This document shows positions 4,957 through 54,040 of a stretch of DNA of 64,000 nt, piece by piece. The position numbers were made by a program, and so were the translations under genes. The DNA lies in contig CAIIXF020000001.1 of NCBI GenBank assembly GCA_903813345.2, positions 7,688,001 to 7,752,000 of the forward strand. Direction: 5' to 3'. The first letter of the stretch is position 1, and each line of letters begins with the position of its first letter. Source of the DNA: Owenia fusiformis. Lineage: Eukaryota. The notes under the pieces are model-generated. The model made no database searches. It had not been told where the DNA came from and was given only the letters and a program-made list of their open reading frames with translations.

Positions 4957-7900
4957 GGCAGAAGAGTTGCTGCGCTCTGTGATAGGTCAGAAGAGAGAAA
5001 ATAAAGATGATGATGGTCCCGATAGTAAAAGGGTTAAAGAGATGGAAGAAGTCAAGTATGTCTTTGGATAGAGTAGCAGTTTTTATATAGTTATCATTGC
5101 ATAAACTTATTAATGGGAACTTTAAAAGAACTATATAATTATCATTGCATAAACTTATTAATGGGAACTTTAAAAGAACTATATAATTATTATTGCATTA
5201 TACTTATCAATGGGAACTTTAAAAGAACTATTTAATTATCATTGCATTATACTTATTAATGGGAACTTTAAAAGAACTATAAAATTATTATTGCATTATA
5301 CTTATTAATGGGAACTTTAAAAGAACTATATAATTATTATTGCATTATACTTATTAATGGGAACTTTAAAAGAACTATAAAATTATTATTGCATTATACT
5401 TATTAATGGGAACTTTAAAAGAACTATATAATTATTATTGCATTATACTTATTAATGGGAACTTTAAAAGAACTATATAATTATTATTGCATTATACTTA
5501 TTAATGGGAACTTTAAAAGAACTATATAATTATTATTGCATTATACTTATTAATGGGAACTTTAAAAGAACTATAAAATTATTATTGCATTATACTTATT
5601 AATGGGAACTTTAAAAGAACTAATATTGACAAAGTGGTCCAAGTGATATATTCAAAATAATACATCAGTAAATAACTGAAGAATTATTTCGAAATTATTG
5701 TATGTGTTTTATGAATACAATAATAATTCAATATACAAAACATGCCATTATTGTGTGAATGTGCCACAAATACTTTCAGTCTCCAAGAATCACTCCCAAG
5801 AATACAGGTCCATACAATAGAAACACAGGAATCATGTACACATGAGGTAAACTAGCTATTTTGCTTAATAATGCAGCATATGATAATGGATTTAAGCCAA
5901 ATCATGTATGTCTTGTACTGAATGAGATCGGCAGCCTGAATGATATTTGTTTATCAAAATTGATCTATTGTCAGAGAATCAAAAAGATAATCAGTCTTTA
6001 AGCATTCCATTTTGTTGTCAATCAGTAATTGTTGTTGTTTTATGTTACCTTGGAGAAAATAAACATTAAATTCTGAAGAATCTGTAGAAATATTCTTTGG
6101 GCTATTTTAATAGTAGATAGTTAGTACAGATCTAAACCAGTACATTTTTATCATTAATGATTCCAGGTGGCAATCCCACCTGATGCGGAATTCATGCCTC
6201 TGAAACCACCAACTGGTAAACCACCCAAAGAATACCCATTTATACTGGATCCATTCCAAAAGGAAGCCGTGTTGTGCCTTGAGAATAAGGAATCTGTCTT
6301 GGTATCTGCCCATACATCAGCTGGAAAAACTGTCTGTGCAGAGTAAGCCAATTTAGCTATAGTAGAATCATAATCATTGGGCAGTACAATGAACAGATGA
6401 ATAATTAATTTGCTTTATCATTTCCGCTGTAAAAAGTGTGCCAAGGTAAGGAATTTGCTTTTTTATTGTACCTAAAAAAGGTATGATATTGTCGTCAGTA
6501 AAAATCGAGCCAAATTTGTACAGATTCAATTTTATTTCCTTTCCTATTAACGAAGATTAACGCTTAATAATAACATTTTACTTCATCGATTTCGATCTAT
6601 TTGTCATCAAAAATTATATAACACTTTAAGAACTCTTATCATGGATAGAGGGAGCACTTTTTATGGTGAATACGGTAATTGTACTGTCTCAAAATTAATG
6701 TGTTCAATGTTCATGTATTCACAGACATTACCTTTCCAAGTATTCACTAATTATCATATTACATATTACATATATTAATGCCTTTATAAAAATGTAAGTG
6801 TGCTCAATATTAAATTACCTGCAAAAAATACCTAAATGAATACTTTCATGATTATATATCATTTCCAGGTATGCCATAGCATTGTCATTACGTGATAAAC
6901 AAAGAGTAATCTACACAACGCCAATAAAAGCACTGAGTAACCAGAAATATCGGGAAATGTATGAGGAATTTCAGGATGTAGGTCTGATGACTGGTGATGT
7001 TACAATCAATCCATCTGCTAGTTGTCTTATTATGACAACAGAGGTGAGGAATTATATATAACAGTTTAATTTGGCTCTGTAATGATTAAAAAAAATGGCC
7101 ATTAAATCAAGAGATTATAACAAAAACAGAACAAATGGTTCTTGTTGCTGACATATTGTTAAAGCCTTAATTCCTGTGATAGCCTTGACAGTAACAAGCT
7201 CCTGTTTCAAATCGCTACATGCGGCATCTGTAATAAATGGCAGGTGGTGACATTTTGCAAGTTAATGCCTTGATTAAAGAGTATTTCAAGTGTTCATCGA
7301 TCCTGTGTAACCACACAGAATTGCTATTTTACACTAAACGTTAAAAAATCAGATCCCTGTTTAGTTATGAATTATTTTATTAAAGGGATAGTAAATATTT
7401 TCCAAGGCTTAATGCAGCAGAAATTAATTGTATAATAATTGGGTGACTTATGTACGTTATTACATGTTTTAGATCCTCAGGAGTATGCTGTATCGGGGCT
7501 CAGAGGTGATGAGAGAAGTTGCATGGGTTGTCTTTGATGAGATACATTATATGAGAGATAAAGGTAATCTTAATCTTCACCTGTCTTTGTCCTTCACCTT
7601 AGTGAGATGTACATTATATGAGAGATAAAGGTAATCTTAATCTACACCTGTCTTTGTCCTTCACCCTAGTGAGATGTACATTATATGAGAGATAAAGGTA
7701 ATCTTAATCTACACCTGTCTTTGTCCTTCACCCTAGTGAGATGTACATTATATGAGAGATAAAGGTAATCTTAATCTTCACCTGTCTTTGCCCTTCGCCC
7801 TAGTGAGATGTACATTATATGAGAGATAAAGGTAATCTTAATCTTCACCTGTCTTTGTCCTTCGCCCTAGTGAGATGTACATTATATGAGAGATAAAGGT

Positions 7901-10900
7901 AATCTTAATCTACACCTGTCTTTGTCCTTCACCCTAGTGAGATGTACATTATATGAGAGATAAAGGTAATCTTAATCTACACCTGTCTTTGTCCTTCACC
8001 CTAGTGAGATGTACATTATATGAGAGATAAAGGTAATCTTAATCTTCACCTGTCTTTGCCCTTCGCCCTAGTGAGATGTACATTATATGAGAGATAAAGG
8101 TAATCTTAATCTTCACCTGTCTTTGCCCTTCACCCTAGTGAGATGTACATTATATGAGAGATAAAGGTAATCTTAATCTACACCTGTCTTTGTCCTTCAC
8201 CCTAGTGAGATGTACATTATATGAGAGATAAAGGTAATCTTAATCTTCACCTGTCTTTGCCCTTCGCCCTAGTGAGATGTACATTATATGAGAGATAAAG
8301 GTAATCTTAATCTTCACCTGTCTTTGCCCTTCGCCCTAGTGAGATGTACATTATATGAGAGATAAAGGTAATCTTAATCTACACCTGTCTTTGTCCTTCA
8401 CCCTAGTGAGATGTACATTATATGAGAGATAAAGGTAATCTTAATCTTCACCTGTCTTTGCCCTTCGCCCTAGTGAGATGTACATTATATGAGAGATAAA
8501 GGTAATCTTAATCTTCACCTGTCTTTGTCCTTCACCCTAGTGAGATGTACATTATATGAGAGATAAAGGTAATCTTAATCCACTACACCTGTCTTTGTCC
8601 TTCACCCTAGTGAGATGTACATTATATGAGAGATAAAGGTAATCTTAATCTTCACCTGTCTTTGCCCTTCGCCCTAGTGAGATGTACATTATATGAGAGA
8701 TAAAGGTAATCTTAATCTACACCTGTCTTTGTCCTTCACCCTAGTGAGATGTACATTATATGAGAGATAAAGGTAATCTTAATCTTCACCTGTCTTTGCC
8801 CTTCGCCCTAGTGAGATGTACATTATATGAGAGATAAAGGTAATCTTAATCTACACCTGTCTTTGTCCTTCACCCTAGTGAGATGTACATTATATGAGAG
8901 ATAAAGGCAATCTTAATCTTCACCTGTCTTTGTCCTTCACCCCAGTGAGATGTACATTATATGAGAGATAAAGGTGATCTTAATCTACTACACCTGTCTT
9001 TGTCTTTCACCCTAGTGAGATGTACATTATATGAGAGATAAAGGTGATCTTAATCTACTACACCTGTCTTTGTCCTTCACCCTGGTGAGATTGTAGAAAG
9101 TATTGTAATAATCAGTCATAAACTTATAATTATTTCCTTTATTTTTTTTCATTTTTTTTCATGACAGTTGTATTTTCACTTTTATTAATAAAATTGTTAA
9201 ATAGCTGCATTGATCTTATTAAATTCTTCCATTTTTGGTTGGTATTTGCTTAATCCTTTATGATACACTATATTTTTATGTCACCAGCAGAAGTGGTGAC
9301 ATATTGTAGTCTTCGAACATTTTTGTGGCTGGTGTTCAGCAAGTGGCGTTCAGCATTCAGCAGTTGGTGTTTGGCATCTGTAACAGTGTTCGGCATTGGG
9401 TGTTTGTGTTGCAATGAGCAGGTGTTGATATTTTGTATGTTAATACCTTGTTTATGATTATAATACTCGTCATTCTGTTTTATTGTGAACCTGTAGAAAG
9501 AGGAGTTGTGTGGGAGGAGACGATTATTCTACTACCAGATAATGTGCATTATGTATTCTTATCTGCCACTATTCCAAATGCCAGGCAGTTTGCTGAATGG
9601 ATATGCTACCTACATAAACAGGTTAGTGATGGCGGCTGTTTGCAGTGCAGTTTTATAGGTCCATCCCATAATTTCTTCAACATATGAGAGATATCAAAAA
9701 TAGCAAGCATCGCCACTCACCAGGCTGTTACTGTTATATTTAGTCTCAGAAATGAATTGAAGTTGAATTGGTATTATTACAAATGAAATATACAGATGAT
9801 GCTTTAGTATATTAAGAATTTAAAAACATTCAATAGTCCCTTTTGTTAATAGAACATTTTACAAGTCCAAAATAACCATCTCCATCCAGATCTGTAAGAA
9901 CTTAAGGGTTAAAACCCGAGGGTTAAGAAAACCACCAATCAGATATTGTTAGATAACATGACATACTCATTGGGATGGTTAACTGAACAATTATGGTATT
10001 TTATATTTCCAGCCCTGCCATGTTGTATATACAGAATACAGACCAGTACCATTGCAGCATTATATATTTCCATCTGGGGGTGATGGTTTACATTTAGTGG
10101 TGGATGAAAATGTAAGTAGGATTTGATATTATCCAATCAGACTGACCATATACAAGTTGAAATCATTCGCTGATCTTCAGGAATGCTTTTCTGCTGTATT
10201 TTCTGCATCATCCTGGCTTAAATAACCCTACATTTGATTGTATTTAAATTTTTGTGTCACCACCATTTTGTATGTTAATGCCTTGTTGTTAGATGTCATG
10301 TTATAGTCATATTTGAGTAAAAAGGGTTATCAAAAATTTAAGAGAGAAACTTGGAATAGAAACATTACTTATTAACTTTTATTATGTCCCCACCACATAG
10401 TGTGGGGCCATATTGTCGGCCTAGGCGCGTTCGTCTGTCTGTCCGTCCATCCGTCCGTCCGTCCGTACCTCCGGGAGTTTTCTCCAAAACTGCTCCAGAT
10501 ATCACCTTCAAATTTTCAGGGATAACTTATGAGTGCATACAGATGTGGATGAAAAAAATTTAATTCGATACCTACTTCCTGTCGGCCATTTTGAAGTCAA
10601 ATGCTAAAATCCTTGCCTGCAAACTTTAAGAAAAACGGCTTCACAGTTGCTTTTAAAACTTTAACATCTTGTTCAGCTCACTTCATTCTAGATCTGATTA
10701 GGTTTTGGACCTGTTAGCTCAGTCATGTCAGCCATTTTGAATGTCTTAAGAAAAGTTAGCGCACAATAATACTTTGTATCATATTGAATGGTGTTTTTGA
10801 GTTTTCATACTTTAACTATTTAGTAACTTTATAAATAATTTCGGATGTACTTTGTTGTAAAAGCTTATGTTATTGTTAACAGTCGTTATATGTGATAATT

Positions 10901-13900
10901 TTGTAAAAAGAAATCAGCAAAAACTCATAATCACTTTTTTATTGTCGGCCATTTTGGATTTTTCCGTCCTAAAATCTTGTCTGTGAAGTCTTGTCTACAT
11001 GTTTCCAGGTGTACCGTTCGGTGGATCAATTTCAAATTTTCAGGGATGATTCATAGTATAAAATCTAGATGTGACTAGTTTTTTGGCATTCTGGGTAAAT
11101 GTCAAGGCAGCCATTTTGGATTTTCCGTCCTAAAATCTTGTCTGTAAAGTCTTGTCTACTTGTTTTCAGGTGAACCGTTTGGTAGATCAATTTCAAATTT
11201 TCAGGGATGATTCATAGTATAAAAATCTAGATGTGATTAGTTTTTTGGCATTCTGGGTAAATGTCAAGGCAGCCATTTTGGATTTTCCGTCCTAAAGTCT
11301 TGTCTGTAAAGTCTTGTCTACGCATTTCCAGGTGAACTGTTCTGTAGATCAATTTCAAATTTTCAGGGATGATTTTTAGTATGAAAATCTAGATCTGATT
11401 AGTTTTCTGGCATTCTGGATAAATGTCAAGGCAGCCATTTTGGATTTTCCGTCTTAAAATCTTGCCTGTAAAGTCTTGTCTATGCGTTTTTAGGTGAACC
11501 ATTTGGTAGATCAATTTCAAATTTTCAGGGATGATTCTTAGTGTGAAAATCTACATCTGATTAGTTTTTTGGCATTCTGTGTAAATGTCAAGGCAGCCAT
11601 TTTGGATTTTCTGTCCTAAAATCTTGTCTGTAAAGTCTTGTCTATGCGTTTTCAGGTGAACCATTTGGTAGATCAATGTCATATTTTCAGGGATGATTCT
11701 TAGTATGAAAATCTAGAAACAGATTAGTTTTTTGACATTCTGGGTAAATGTCAAGGCAGCCATTTTGGATTTTCCATCCTAAAATCTTGTCTGTAAAGTC
11801 TTGTTTACATGTTTTCTGGTTAACTGTGTGACTGTGTTGATCAATTAAAAATTTTCAGGGGTGGTTCTTAGTTTGAAAATCTAGAACTAACTAAATTTTT
11901 GACATTCTGGGTAAATTTTAAGGTGGCCATTTTGGATTTTCCGTCCTCAAATTGTGTTGGTTAAGTCTTGTCTACTCATTTTCAGGATAACCATTTGATG
12001 GGATCACCCATAGGTGGGGACATTTTGTACATATTTGTGTTCTTGTTTACTGTTTATATTTTTAAGACCTCCTGATTTAACATTATAATATGCTGTCATT
12101 GACAGAAATCACAGTGAAAGCTACGATAGCTACATACATTTACAACATGAATCTGTCTCGTAAACCTAAACATAGTGTACACTATATTCTAGGGTGAGTT
12201 TCGAGAAGAGAACTTTAATACTGCAATGGCTGTCCTGAAAGATAGCAATGCTGGCAAGGCTGGACAGTGGGGGAAGAAAGGGGGGCAGAAGGGTGGGAAA
12301 GGTAAGAAAAACCACCCATTACATACAATCCAACCTATTCCATGACATATGCTTACTCCCCTTATTTGGAGTAATTGGCAAGTCTAAAAAACACCCCTTT
12401 ATAAAAAAGTGGACTGGCCCAAGTGGCCAATATCGATCCCCAACTCATTATGTATTCATATTTAATTCTTGCCACGTAGGAGTAATTGGAAAATTTTTCA
12501 AGTCAATATATATCGTACGATCTATTTACTCAACAAATTTCTGTTACTTATAAGTCAGAATTTGTTTTTTGAATAGAGAGTATCATAGTCATAACATTAG
12601 TCTAGTATGGCAGAACAGGGCTCTATTCAGGGTGAAATTACTTCTGAATTGAACTTGAACGGTCCCTCGACCTCGTCAACTTTGACCGGGAATGAAGTGA
12701 TAAACGACGTCTCTTTGGCTACCACATCCGTCACAGATTATGTCCAATCCTTAGTGGAAGAGGCGGTGACTAGGAAAATGGCTACCCTTGGAAACAGGCC
12801 ACCAACGAGACCTCCTTCTGACCGTAGAAGCCCGTCTTCAAGCTATTTACACAACTTGGAATACTCGCTTCCGAGAGAGCAGTCCCCCCGGAGCAGTAAG
12901 AAGGCCGTAGAGACGGGAAAACGAGGTAACGATTCGCACCGAAATGACACCAAATTTCGTGACTACAACTATTCCGCCACACACCACGTGGACGTAAGTA
13001 GGTCAACTTTTCGAAATCGTTCAAGATCTCCCGTTTCTCAGCTTAGAAGCCCTTCTAGATTGTCTCACCACTCCTACTCTCACACTAATAGACCCTCTGA
13101 TAGTTCGCCGAGTAGGATTTCCGGGACTTCACGTCAGGGAACTCAGAATTCACGATCCATTATCAACAATTTTAGTTCCAAAATTTCACAATCTCAAAAT
13201 TCAGATTCTAAACCTCGTATTTTGGATTCTGATGACAACGAGCCGTCTAAATCTAAGTCCTCTGAAGAAGAAGCGGTCTTGTTAGTTCGTTCCTTATGGG
13301 ATTCAACCATATCAGCCTTAGAAATTGACCAAGTCAACAGCTCCACTAATTCTAAAGAATCTTTGACTAGGGTAGCTCTCCAGAAAGTTGATGAATCTTC
13401 AGTCACTAAAGCTTCATTACCTTGTCCCCCAGTGTTCCATCAGTTGGTGCAGAATATCAATAATCAGATCTCATCTGCCACTTCCGGTTTCAACACAAAG
13501 GGAAAACTCTTCAGAATCAAATCTTCAAATTATAGATTAGCCAAGGGAGATGATTCAGTCGTACGGCCCCTCAAACTCAATAATTCACTTGGAAACTTAG
13601 TCCCAAATGATAAAACCTTCAGTGATTTCTTCAAGAATGCTGATACTAAAACTCAACTCTCCAATAAAAACTGGAAGGGTCTCGAAGAGAACTTGAGGGC
13701 TGTCCTTCAACCTTTGGTGTACTCAGAGTGGTATATAGGTTCTGTTTCAAAGTTAGTTACCCAACTCACAGCACACTTATCCAACAACACGGATCCACTA
13801 GTTACCCAGTTGTTAGATTCCATGGGCGATTTACTCCTTAGGGGTTCGACAGCCTCTGTTACTGCTACTGAAGGTATTCTCAAGACTCTCACCAACTCAG

Positions 13901-34900: not shown

Positions 34901-37900
34901 AGGATGTACTCTCATCCCATGCACAAAAATGCCAATTTAGAGGAACTTTACAATGCTTATGATAAAAAGATGCAGGTGAGTGACCAATTTACCCTCAAAA
35001 CCTCATACCATGTAAAATGTAAACTTTCACATGTATATTATTTATGGCACTGTAAATAATTTAGGAAATGGTAGAGAATAAGGCTTTAGGCATTCCTGAA
35101 CTGAAGAAAAATGTCACAATTTATTTGTATCCTTCAGATATAGTCAATTTAATTGATGCAAATGTAAAAGTAGTGTATTTTTCTGTACATTGTAGTTAGC
35201 AAACGAGATAAAGGCAGTAAAGAGTGAGCTTAAGAAAAAGAAATCTCTGCTACAGATGGATGAACTAAAGTGTATGAAGCGTGTCTTAAGACGGCTGGGA
35301 TATGTTGATATCTCGGATGTTATAGAACTGAAGGGCAGAGTAGCATGTGAAATTAGCAGGTATGTTCACTACAATACTACACTATGTACATTTTAATAAA
35401 ACACATTTACATTTCAGAGATCTGCATGTTGTAGACATATTTTAGATCTTATTACATCTTATTTAAACATTTTTTACTTGTTTTATGTGAATCCATTATA
35501 CTTATACAAATGTATGTAAGTGTATGTATGATAATGCAAATTTTGATAAAAACAGGTTGTATGTACAACATTTTTGCCAATTTGGTGAATTAAGCTGTAT
35601 TGAATATATGCATATTCATATTTGTAGCTGTGATGAGCTGTTACTGACTGAACTGATCTTCAATGGTGTATTTAATGAGCTAACTCCCCAGCAAGCCAAC
35701 AGTCTCATGAGTTGTTTTGTATTCCAAGAGAAAGCATCAGAAATGCCTAAACTTACAGAAGAGCTCTCACAGCCACTCCGGATAATGCAGGTATGATTCG
35801 TTTGTATATATTTAATACGTGTAGAACCAGCAAAGTATTTGACTTCAAGTGTCCGTTAACTGAAGCCATATTAATAATCAAGTTGATTTACTGTCTTGAT
35901 GCTATTGTTGAGCAATATGAGAATACAATACGGCCCCTCGGGTAGATATATTGTATTTCCCTCAGATATACCCTGTATCAAAAACCTCCCATTAAATAAC
36001 CTCTAAGTATTACATACATGTACTAAGTTAACTGATGTTCTCTGTAGGAAACTGCCACCAGGATTGCAAAAGTGAGTGTGGAAGCAAAGTTAGAGCTGAA
36101 TGAGGAGGAATATGTTGAACAGTTTAAACCTCACATGATGGATGTTGTACATGCCTGGAGTAATGGCTGCTCCTTCCTACAGATCTGCAAGATGACTGAT
36201 GTCTTTGAAGGTCAGGGACATAATTTTTAATGTTTACTATAAATGTGTGGTACATTGAGTAAAAAAATAGCTTCATGCTGAACCATAAATTGTTTGTGAC
36301 TTCAAATCTAGCAGAATTTCGATCATTTAAAAAAACATTTGCTAGTTTATTTGGGGGTGAATTTTTTTGATAAAACATTGCAAAATTGGTTTCAGAACAG
36401 AATATTCTAAGATTTAAGTATAAATGAAGTACATAGCAAGAATATGTGCTCTGTGAGTACAATATTATTCAGTAAGGAGCTTCAATTGCTTCAATGATAG
36501 AGTGGTTGCTGAGTTTAAAGTTGTGTGTTCAAATTTCAGGTAGCATTATTAGATGTATGCGAAGGTTGGAAGAGACTCTACGACAGATGTGCCAAGCCGC
36601 TAAAGCAATCGGTAATACAGACCTTGAAAACAAATTCTCTGAAGGTATGACATTTTTGTAAATCTGTTCTTGAAAATCCCACAAAAGATTGGTTCATATA
36701 TAGCGTACATATAAAATTTTGGCAGAGTGGAGCAAAATTTGTCAGTATGTAATGCCCCATGTTAGATGTTAAGTTAGTAATCCCATCGAACGAAGTTCGG
36801 AGGGTTATAGGGAACGCCTCCGTCCGTCCGTCCGTCCGTCTGTCTGTACATACGTCAGTAAGTCCGTCCGTCCAGGCAATAACTCAAATACCGTTGGCCC
36901 GATTTTGATCATATTTTGTACACATATACCTTATGGGGGTAGAAGTTCTGCTCGAAAGCCGATTTTCAAAATGGCCGCTCATTTCAAAATGGCGGCCATT
37001 TTAGTGCCGAATTTACAGTAATTTATGTAAAACTGTAATAGCAATATGTTTAGATGTATTAAATTATATAGTACATTAATAAAGCTAGAAATATAGATAT
37101 TAAAGAAACACATGGCAGCCATCTTGAAAAATGGTGGCCTTTACTCGTTATTTTACGATTTTTGCTGTAACTCAAAAAGTAGTGGAGCGATTTTGTTCAT
37201 ATTTGGTATGTGAATACTATAAACATTGCACACTGTCTAAAGACACTTTTGGTAGAAGATGGCCATTTTAAAAAATGGCCGCCATTTTAACCTATTTTTC
37301 TATAACTCGAAAAGTAGTGAAGCGATTTTGTTCATATTTGGTATGTGAATACTATAAGCATGGCACACTGTCTAATGACACTTTTGGTAGTAGGCGGCCA
37401 TTTTTCAAAATGGCCACCATTTTAACGTATTTTACAATAACTGGAAAAGTAGTGGAGCGATTTTGTTCATATTTGGTATGTGAATACTAAAAGCATGACA
37501 CACTATCCTATGACACTTTTAGTAGATGGTGGCCATTTTGAAAAATGGCCGCCATTTTAACGTATTTTATAATAATTCGAAAAGTAGTGAAGCGATTTTG
37601 CTCATATTTGGTATGTGAATACTGTAAGCATGGCACACTGTCTAATGACACTTTTGGTTGAAGGCGGCCATTTTTCAAAATGGCCGCCATTTTAACGTAT
37701 TTTACTATAACTCGAAAAGTAGTGGAGCGATTTTGTTCATATTTGGTATGTGAATACTATAAGTATGGCAAATGGTCTAATGACACTTTTGGTAGAAGGC
37801 GGCCATTTTGAAAAATGCCTGCCATTTTTGCTATATACTTTGTTTGTAAAAATGCCATCCATGGCTGTTCGATGGGATTTGCTACGCTTTGGCGTTGCCG

Positions 37901-53522: not shown

Positions 53523-54040
53523 TCTAACTGGACAACAGCAACGCCAAAGCGTAGCAAATCCCATCGAACAGCCATGGCTGGTATTTTTACAAACAAAGTA
53601 TATAGCAAAAATGGCAGCCATTTTTCAAATTGGCCACTATCTACCAAAAGTGTCATTAGACAGTGTGCCATGCTTATAGCATTCACATACCAAATATGAA
53701 CAAAATCGCTCCACTACTTTTCGAGTTATAGTAAAATACGTAAAAATGGCGGTCATTTTTCAAAATAGCCACCTTCTACCAAAAGTGTCATTAGACAGTG
53801 TGCCATACTTATAGTATTCACATACCAAATATGAACAAAACTGCTCCACTACTTTTCGAGTTATAGTAAAATACGTTAAAATGGTGGCCATTTTTCAAAA
53901 TGACCGCCTTCTACCAAAAGTGTCATTGAACAGTGTGCCATGCTTATAGTATTCACCTACCAAATAAGAACAAAATCGCTCCACTACTTTTCGAGTTACA
54001 GCAAAAACCGTAAAATAGCGAGTAAAGGCCGCCATTTTTC
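53523..54040 (-). mobile_element. Truncated reverse copy of the 36773-37911 HINE family (3' end plus ~3.5 satellite units)
   Basis: Reverse complement of about 37130-37911, including CAACGCCAAAGCGTAGCAAATCCCATCGAACAGCCATGG and the 135-bp units. Confidence 0.85.

Follow-up and report, generated by a model that had tools for sequence, protein, structure and literature searches.

Minisatellites whose first monomer lies across an exon-intron boundary have been described in the human genes F7, IFI6, CBS, LMNB2 and PDGF, where, according to Borensztajn et al. 2006 (PMC1557585), only the first one to three of the reiterated donors are used. In F7, a 37-bp VNTR of intron 7 (IVS7) starts within exon 7, and identical donors follow the authentic one. 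Physiological splicing takes the most upstream donor alone, and experiments on this intron showed that donor to pair with the true exon, by exon definition or 5′-to-3′ selection. The intronic donor is likewise reiterated 10-25 times in the other genes listed there (IFI6 (6-16) intron 2, with 25 pseudo-sites, CBS IVS13, LMNB2 and PDGF intron 4), and for LMNB2 and PDGF the authentic site is stated to be used exclusively. Internal tandem repeats of the minisatellite type have also expanded across exon-intron boundaries in human segmental-duplication genes, where they can alter splicing patterns and often create new introns or alternative transcripts with transcript support (De Grassi and Ciccarelli 2009, PMC2812944). 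In addition, the length of an intronic tandem repeat can be linked to the splicing outcome, as for ABCA7 intron 18 (PMC5954066) and the spl-TRs (PMC10078293).

An array of this known class is present in the MTREX gene of the annelid Owenia fusiformis, in a stretch of 64,000 nt that was analysed as a whole and is called the window here. Units of this class measure ~10-100 bp and lie head-to-tail in many copies; here the unit is 67 bp long and occurs in 23.0 copies. The first monomer holds both the exon end and the authentic 5′ splice site (array start 7543, exon end 7563), and the donor is reiterated in the intron as AAG/GTAATC x 20 plus three variants (slashes mark splice boundaries). As for F7, where the downstream donors stay unused, the RNA-seq runs used here gave no array-derived RNA. 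The two cases differ in their dimensions: the F7 unit, of 37 bp with 4 exon nucleotides, is present 5-9 times, whereas the MTREX array has 23 x 67 bp with ~21-28 exon-like nucleotides. Moreover, each MTREX unit adds a pyrimidine tract and an AG, which creates 28-nt pseudo-exons. The annelid array is known from sequence and RNA-seq, in contrast to F7, which was studied by mutational and minigene work. Alternative transcripts of the kind described for the segmental-duplication repeats were not seen for the MTREX array in the RNA-seq runs described below.

The host gene is MTREX/Mtr4, an RNA helicase gene. In tblastn searches the MTR4 protein of Owenia fusiformis (P0064) matched the window without a difference in all exon segments that were mapped. 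When the spliced gene was reconstructed against this protein, 7043/7473 and 7563/9497 were the sole GT/GC-AG solutions that reproduced it. Both the assignment to MTREX and the position of the exon end directly after DEIH, which had been proposed in an earlier sequence-only reading of this DNA, were borne out. The coordinates of the features are collected in Table 1.

Table 1. Features of the MTREX junction array and its flanking exons (window coordinates)
Feature	Position	Strand	Basis
MTREX exon, 91 nt, encoding helicase motif II (DEIH); the repeat unit takes its exon-derived part from the final 21 nt	7473..7563	+	tblastn with P0064, 100% identity
Minisatellite, period 67, 23.0 copies, copy 1 across the exon-intron boundary	7543..9091	+	TRF, unit table, probe count
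Authentic donor AAG/GTAATC; 19 further identical copies at 67-nt steps (one step 70), last GT at 8840	7561..7569	+	
Intron, 1933 nt, phase 1; the array takes up its first ~1.53 kb	7564..9496	+	Spliced reconstruction against P0064
Pseudo-exon 1 of 22; all are identical exon-like pieces of 28 nt with an in-frame TAA	7603..7630	+	
Three degenerate distal units, 21-23	8907..9091	+	Unit table
Next MTREX exon; of the 23 acceptors in the gene, this one has the lowest score	9497..9621	+	P0064 mapping, PWM

TRF gave the array a score of 2793, with 96% matches and 0% indels, in agreement with the 23 tandem cassettes of 67 bp that had been noticed before. A 34-nt probe over the exon end and donor found 23 matches at up to 3 mismatches, every one within the array; there was no match in 100 shuffles, and a 34-nt probe found none among metagenome contigs. 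The units follow a register of 39 intron-like and 28 exon-like nucleotides, with 23 donor-like sites at 7564 + 67n; a length of 70 nt is found in units 16 and 22, and unit 23 has a similar 3-nt insertion. Counting the true site, 20 donors read AAG/GTAATC (7564 to 8840), close to the earlier estimate of about 20 donors identical to that at 7563, and the three variants are GC at 8907 and GTGATC at 8974 and 9044. There are 22 AG sites (TTAG in unit 1, CTAG in units 2-20, CCAG in unit 21 and CTAG in unit 22), and the AG is lost in unit 23 (CTGG). The unit table therefore agrees with the altered distal copies and the lost last AG described from the letters: unit 21 combines the GC donor with CCAG, unit 22 has GTGATC and a C>T change besides the 3-nt insertion, and unit 23 has GTGATC, the insertion and CTGG before it passes into unique intron sequence.

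Two details of the earlier description held in part. The 28-nt piece, which had been taken as a copy of the exon end, is an exact copy in its last 21 nt only. Its first 7 nt, TGAGATG, are unlike the exon (TGAGAT-ACATT vs TGAGATGTACATT), and because the start of the 28-mer differs from the exon, the first period is 65 nt rather than 67. The array donors are preceded by a stretch that is specific to the repeat units (...GAGATGTACATT...AAAG). The branch-like motif CTTAAT does occur, at a distance of only ~10 nt from the donor within the same unit. In units 1-22 nine sites vary (11 alignment columns, with the 3-nt insertion counted once), all of them in the 39-nt intron-like part, while the exon-like 28-mers are identical in 22/22. 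Under uniform placement such a confinement has P ~0.003-0.008, for a pattern that was noticed post hoc; the invariance of the 28-mers might be a hint that this exon-like part is constrained. No inverted repeats were found within 7050-9500.

Next to a genuine minisatellite, we considered that the array or its length might have arisen from misassembled repetitive reads, which appears very improbable. In run X1, which is DNA-like (introns and exons are equally deep in its contigs) and possibly not independent of the assembly, array pieces with 0-1 differences have a depth of 45-72 compared to 8.6-11.9 in the flanks; hence the array sequence is multi-copy in X1 too. Interspersed unit variants and degenerate distal units are also typical of real minisatellites. 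The length is less secure: the summed array depth in X1 (~244 x 114 nt), divided by that of the flanks, gives ~2.3-3.2 kb by rough arithmetic, which exceeds the 1.55 kb in the window and amounts to ~1.5-2 times 23 units at flank depth. A misjudged copy number, or variation between individuals, may account for the excess.

The reading frame was followed through the array for the possible splice choices. As had been claimed from the sequence, all alternative choices end at a TAA just after DEIHYMRDK. Read-through yields an ORF of 47 aa (7485-7628) that stops at the array TAA, and the translated products with one, two or three 28-mers included carry a premature stop. Every 28-nt pseudo-exon has a pyrimidine-rich tract and an AG before it and a donor copy after it; in each of the 22 copies, flanked by AG and GT, inclusion thus adds a premature stop as in a poison exon. 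An in-frame alternative donor at the GTGAGA motif was rejected, as the extension would be 38 or 41 nt and neither is a multiple of 3.

Use of these sites was checked in three stranded raw-read RNA-seq runs, chosen by species label, of about 11-13 million reads each. On the gene strand the depth in the three runs was 14.3, 17.8 and 19.0 in bin 6914-7027 and 7.4, 6.5 and 9.3 in 7484-7597; past the array it was 9.0, 11.1 and 7.9 in 9536-9649 and 14.5, 10.1 and 13.2 in 9992-10105. Between them, over 7598-9193, the depth was 0 in 14/14 bins on both strands in all three runs, with neighbouring exons at ~6-19. Position 7556 was covered by 8, 10 and 10 reads, none of which extends to 7598, so that these reads do not continue into the array. 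Repetitive records were not simply dropped in the mapping, since array positions did receive contigs of run X1. An exonic SNP, A/C at 7523, was seen as well. Among the 15 of 77 joints that were listed, none had an end in the array. The sequence-only reading had named junction reads with +28 nt as a check; at this exon depth no read of the three runs was placed in the array. Use of the 7563/9497 joint, which is not one of the 15 listed, is indicated by the depth on both sides together with the gene model.

Poison-exon inclusion was not detected in the three runs, whose sensitivity is limited at an exon depth of ~6-19 with NMD active. At ~10 junction reads per run, unproductive isoforms that make up no more than roughly 10% of steady-state RNA fall below detection, as do isoforms above 10% at the level of production, and a 28-nt middle piece may escape the aligner. 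The extra splice sites of the array show no sign of use in these RNA data; rare or NMD-degraded isoforms are possible, among them rare use of sites 2-3.

These data bear on the idea that a fraction of the transcripts uses the array sites, either as 28-nt poison exons or as retained units with their TAA, and that the length of the array tunes MTREX dosage through NMD. The general thought behind such tuning is the link between repeat length and splicing reported for ABCA7 and the spl-TRs; that link rests on population association, and the repeats are apparently not copies of a splice junction, unlike those of the MTREX array. The layout of the locus would suit it. Whichever alternative is chosen, the product ends directly behind motif II. 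The donors of the array do not differ in sequence from the real one, and variation among units is confined to the intron-like parts, with invariant 28-mers. The true donor has a score of 7.79 in a local PWM (17th among the gene's 23 donors), and the array acceptors, at 0.3-3.5, score like the real acceptor (3.32), which is a weak one; the PWM is rough, because it was trained on only 22 sites. The array acceptors have pyrimidines at 15/18 positions compared to 11/18 for the real acceptor. Introns that reach across units are possible: one that ends at the AG of the following unit would measure 106 nt, longer ones 173 nt and up, and those of at least 173 nt exceed the shortest intron of the gene, 151 nt. 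There is also a precedent in IFI6 and CBS, for which PMC1557585 gives constitutive use of the second and third sites.

On the other side stand the RNA and protein data. No read fell in 7598-9193 in any run, none of the listed joints touched the array, and the array-encoded tail, or LSLSF, was present in 0/239 database proteins. The 51-aa query, run against longer proteins, consisted of the exon plus the read-through tail; this last evidence is weak, as it covers the best 120 of 4777 matches. The 47-aa read-through ORF was absent from the protein collection by exact look-up, but so was an 84-aa control ORF around the next exon, and the look-up is thus uninformative on other assemblies. Taken with the RNA data, regulated unproductive splicing of this kind seems unlikely to us. 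A more specific version holds that the array is a copy-number-variable splice-site sink, in which the 22 array acceptors and 19 extra donors capture a share of the MTREX pre-mRNAs, the array length sets the output of this core RNA-surveillance helicase and the 28-mer is kept by selection. We regard it as a decidedly long shot. If it were true, captured transcripts would stop after the DEIH box and be removed by NMD or the nuclear exosome, and the present runs, which sampled steady-state poly(A) RNA with NMD active, would not show them.

The array units might also serve as ratchet points for a stepwise removal of the intron. In each unit the pyrimidine tract and AG abut a donor-like sequence (TA/GTGAGA, overlapping the AG), and ligation of the exon to an array AG would regenerate AAA/GTGAGA, with a score of 6.89 compared to 7.79 for the real donor. 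However, the units read CTAG/TGAGAT, and thus AG/TG rather than AG/GT. The regenerated site would cut at -1 nt relative to the true exon end and shift the frame; on this ground recursive splicing was rejected. Recursive splicing is a device of very long introns; this intron has just 1933 nt, and there are no array reads. We therefore give this possibility next to no weight. The earlier proposal had been two-sided: a neutral expansion that the spliceosome ignores fits the data, while a tunable poison-exon or recursive array found no positive support.

Most probably the array is a near-neutral intronic minisatellite that arose by slippage and whose extra splice sites are silent. The founding unit of ~67 bp would have comprised the last ~21 nt of the MTREX exon and the first ~46 nt of the intron, duplicated in tandem, likely by slippage or unequal exchange at the short TGAGAT direct repeat common to exon and intron, and would later have grown to 23 copies. 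With its left breakpoint inside the exon, the duplication leaves the authentic exon end and donor in the first copy and the coding sequence intact. The spliceosome would then take only the most upstream donor (7563/7564) together with the distant acceptor (9496/9497), and the 19 identical downstream donors and 22 AG sites would remain silent.

Three features may account for this silence. The upstream-most donor may pair with the true exon, via exon definition or a 5′-to-3′ oriented selection. The donor-AG spacing within a unit, 39 nt with the branch-like motif ~10 nt from the donor, is presumably too short for an intron, and the 28-nt pseudo-exons are probably below the size needed for exon definition. 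The gene's own minima are an intron of 151 nt (n=23) and an internal exon of 67 nt (n=22), compared to 39 and 28 nt for the array pieces. Occasional mis-splicing would lead to a stop at least 9 codons past DEIHYMRDK, and clearance by NMD would be expected. RNA folding of the exon end with three units was less stable than that of shuffles (z = +0.98), and structural masking of the downstream donors is thus unsupported. Rfam gave no match on 6800-10200 at E up to 1. The locus is otherwise ordinary, with no evidence of function found.

The array is a natural competition experiment: a single 1.9-kb intron of an essential gene, in a spiralian rather than a mammal, offers 20 donors of one sequence together with 22 acceptor-like sites. 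If exclusive use of the first donor holds, the rule from F7 that the most upstream site wins would reach annelids, and would also cover units that offer acceptors. Since short overhangs match 22 places, the array is a trap for gene predictors and split-read aligners. Junction arrays of this kind are likely to serve as length-variable markers.

Minisatellites are common in the window, a base rate that favours the neutral reading. Seven arrays (period ≥26, ≥3 copies) take up 4650 of the 64,000 nt (7.3% of the window), and the MTREX span holds 5/7 of them. By simple arithmetic, ~9% of random 67-bp duplications in this 33-kb gene would be expected to lie across one of the 46 exon-intron boundaries. 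Another array, 49 bp x 11 and purely intronic, starts 29 nt past a different donor, and its homogeneity of 96% is like that of the junction array.

The exons that flank the array code for the part of the exosome helicase MTREX/Mtr4 that contains motif II, in agreement with the identity proposed by the sequence-only reading. Among ten full-length homologues tried, the best fit was the reference protein P0064, given at its source as annelid MTR4 (Owenia fusiformis), which was identical to the window in every mapped exon segment; the mismatches were all found at BLAST alignment ends, inside introns. When GT/GC-AG ends and exact translation to P0064 were both required, exactly one solution was obtained for each of 23 junctions, 7563/9497 included (P0064 residues 48-1033, mapped as 24 exon segments), with introns of 151-8115 nt and internal exons of 67-245 nt. 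HYMRDKG... was found in 61 of 239 fetched proteins (among the matches listed), as genomic ORFs that run from the homologous exon into a G/GT intron, and judging from these sequences the phase-1 intron position after ...MRDK seems to be widely conserved among animals. In P0003, an 86-aa protein of metagenome source from another organism, one reading frame holds about three tandem copies of the beginning of the homologous next exon, which suggests that a tandem duplication took place at the acceptor end of the corresponding MTREX intron.

The array itself was confirmed by TRF as a single tandem array at 7543-9091 (period 67, 23.0 copies, 96% matches, 0 indels), and a 34-nt probe over exon end and donor gave 23 matches, all within the array, and 0 in 100 shuffles. 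We divided it in the register used previously, 39 nt intron-like and then 28 nt exon-like. Donor-like sites are present at 7564 + 67n, except that the steps following units 16 and 22 are 70 nt long. As had been claimed, about 20 donors are identical to the real one (AAG/GTAATC at 20 sites, true donor included) and the distal sites are altered: the last three donor-like sites read GC (8907), GTGATC (8974) and GTGATC (9044). The intron-like piece ends in CTAG in units 2-20 and 22, in TTAG in unit 1 and in CCAG in unit 21, which makes 22 AGs, and unit 23 has CTGG in its place. The 28-mer, described before as a copy of the exon end, is an exact copy in its last 21 nt alone; its first 7 nt differ from the exon (TGAGAT-ACATT in the exon, TGAGATGTACATT in the units).

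The hexamer TGAGAT marks both array ends: one copy is exonic (7538-7543), every unit finishes with one, and one belongs to the last unit, from which the sequence continues as TGAGATTGTAGAAAG into unique intron. Short direct repeats could plausibly have given rise to the array, by slippage or unequal exchange. Two main forms of the unit, distinguished by positions 14, 27 and 33, are interspersed along the array together with recombinant forms. Degeneration is strongest in the three distal units. Minisatellites homogenised by unequal exchange usually look like this. In units 1-22 (7564-9043), all 9 variable sites fall in the 39-nt intron-like part, whereas 22/22 28-mers are identical. The probability of this placement, spotted post hoc, is about 0.003-0.008 under uniform placement. 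X1, a contig run placed on 6800-10200, behaved like genomic DNA, with contigs containing exon and intron at equal depth (8.6-11.9). Its array pieces showed 0-1 differences at a depth of 45-72. By rough arithmetic, their summed depth corresponds to 2.3-3.2 kb at flank depth versus 1.55 kb in the window, although X1 may itself depend on the genome assembly, and therefore the copy number may be underestimated or may vary from one individual to another.

Three stranded RNA-seq runs (raw reads) that carry the same species label were analysed on 6800-10200 together with X1. Over the array, RNA depth was 0 in all 14 bins of 7598-9193, on both strands and in all three runs, and position 7556 was covered by 8, 10 and 10 reads, none of which extends to 7598; the reads thus do not run on into the array. 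The neighbouring junctions 7043/7473 and 9621/10013 were spanned by 10, 7 and 16 and by 11, 9 and 10 reads, respectively. No joint touching the array was present among the best 15 of 77 joints, each supported by about 26 reads or more when the three RNA runs are combined, and most of them from a high-copy repeat; 7563/9497 was also absent from those 15. Read depth and the gene model together point to canonical splicing from 7563 to 9497. With about 10 junction reads per run, this steady-state RNA may miss rare or NMD-degraded isoforms. The RNA reads also contain exonic single-base differences at intermediate frequency (7523, 7001, 9559, 10051 and others), for instance A>C at 7523 in 4/11, 8/10 and 12/14 reads (third codon position, GCA to GCC), and these would be usable in allele-specific expression tests.

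Reconstructed host gene and RNA read depth in bins around the array (three runs)
Feature	Position	Strand	Basis or values
MTREX gene	4955-38183	+	junction reconstruction against P0064
RNA depth	6914-7027	gene strand	14.3 / 17.8 / 19.0
RNA depth	7484-7597	gene strand	7.4 / 6.5 / 9.3
RNA depth	9536-9649	gene strand	9.0 / 11.1 / 7.9
RNA depth	9992-10105	gene strand	14.5 / 10.1 / 13.2

The sequence-only reading offered two roles for the array, a copy-number-tunable poison-exon or recursive-splicing array, or a neutral expansion that the spliceosome ignores. Its claim that every alternative choice truncates the protein held: read-through from the exon gives an ORF of 7485-7628, inclusion of one, two or three 28-mers leads to the same short truncated end, and alternative splice choices in the array are all unproductive. 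Regulation by a tunable poison exon is improbable in our estimate, and the absence of RNA depth over the array agrees with the neutral expansion. Recursive splicing was rejected. Joining the exon to an array AG regenerates AAA/GTGAGA (score 6.89 versus 7.79 for the real donor), and a cut there would fall 1 nt short of the real exon end and put the reading frame out. As recursive splice sites, the units are thus out of register.

Splice sites were scored with a position weight matrix trained on the other 22 sites of MTREX, a small set that makes the scores rough. The donor common to the true site and the array copies ranked 17th of 23 in the gene and at the 98.5th percentile among + strand GTs of the window; the overlapping TA/GTGAGA motif was weak (2.29). 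Array acceptors scored 0.3-3.5 on this rough scale, and the real acceptor at 9497 scored 3.32, the lowest of 23, with 11/18 pyrimidines versus 15/18 in the array acceptors. Why the array would be ignored is thus not accounted for by sequence alone. Geometry may be the reason: within a unit the donor-to-AG distance is 39 nt with a branch-like TTAAT about 10 nt from the donor, and the 28-nt pseudo-exons and 39-nt intra-unit introns compare with a smallest internal exon of 67 nt and intron of 151 nt in MTREX. Introns that extend over more than one unit (106 nt, or 173 nt and longer) are possible in principle.

Minisatellites of this kind have been described before. In passages of Borensztajn et al. 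(2006, PMC1557585), the first monomer of a 37-bp VNTR in human F7 lies over the exon 7-IVS7 boundary, and its 4-8 identical pseudo-sites are functional yet silent because the most upstream site is chosen; in IFI6, with 25 pseudo-sites, the first two are also used, and CBS, LMNB2 and PDGF are named as further cases. Exon-intron boundary repeats are likewise reported to alter splicing of human duplicated genes in passages of De Grassi and Ciccarelli (2009, PMC2812944). The MTREX array has the structure of the F7/IFI6/CBS/LMNB2/PDGF family. It differs in its annelid host, in the length of its unit, which includes about 21-28 exon-like nt, and in the pyrimidine tract and AG of its units, by which acceptors are reiterated along with donors. 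Use of the first donor alone in the MTREX intron is supported, though not settled.

Minisatellites are abundant in the window: seven (period at least 26, at least 3 copies) occupy 4650 nt (7.3%), five of them within MTREX, and the chance that a random 67-bp duplication in the 33-kb MTREX gene spans one of its 46 exon-intron boundaries is about 9%. An array that spans such a boundary is thus no surprise in the Owenia fusiformis genome. As a neutral comparison we used the intronic MTREX minisatellite at 5084-5622 (49 bp x 11.0), which starts 29 nt past donor 5055/5056 and does not include the splice site; the 67-bp array is no better conserved (96% matches each). Taken together, the array is real and striking-looking but of a known kind, and it is most probably a near-neutral slippage product ignored by the spliceosome.

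Further searches gave no Rfam match around the array (6800-10200), no stable RNA fold (z = +0.98, exon end plus three units) and no inverted repeats (7050-9500). The 34-nt probe had no match in metagenome contigs, the array-encoded tail was in 0/239 database proteins fetched (among the matches listed), and the exact read-through ORF was absent from the protein collection, as was a control ORF. In the papers searched, MTREX and poison exon occurred together in two, in neither case in the title or abstract.

A very high-copy repeat is present in two pieces, 7142-7369 and 9194-9421, on either side of exon and array (X1 depth about 4x10^4 to 1.3x10^5, RNA depth about 340-830; no Rfam match). The two pieces adjoin elsewhere in the genome, as many reads go from about 9307 back to about 7223-7235. 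In one X1 contig (530 nt, depth 8.6), 6855-7107 is followed by 14 other letters and then directly by 7421-7516; the 313 nt of 7108-7420 that hold the repeat are missing, and this segment probably represents an insertion polymorphism of the intron that precedes exon 7473-7563. Arrays of a 135-bp unit occur at 37160-37828 (+) and 53607-54015, with consensus units that look like mutual reverse complements; the unit may therefore belong to a dispersed satellite or to a repeat carried by an element. Another array, of 162 bp x 6.4, is located at 10948-11997.
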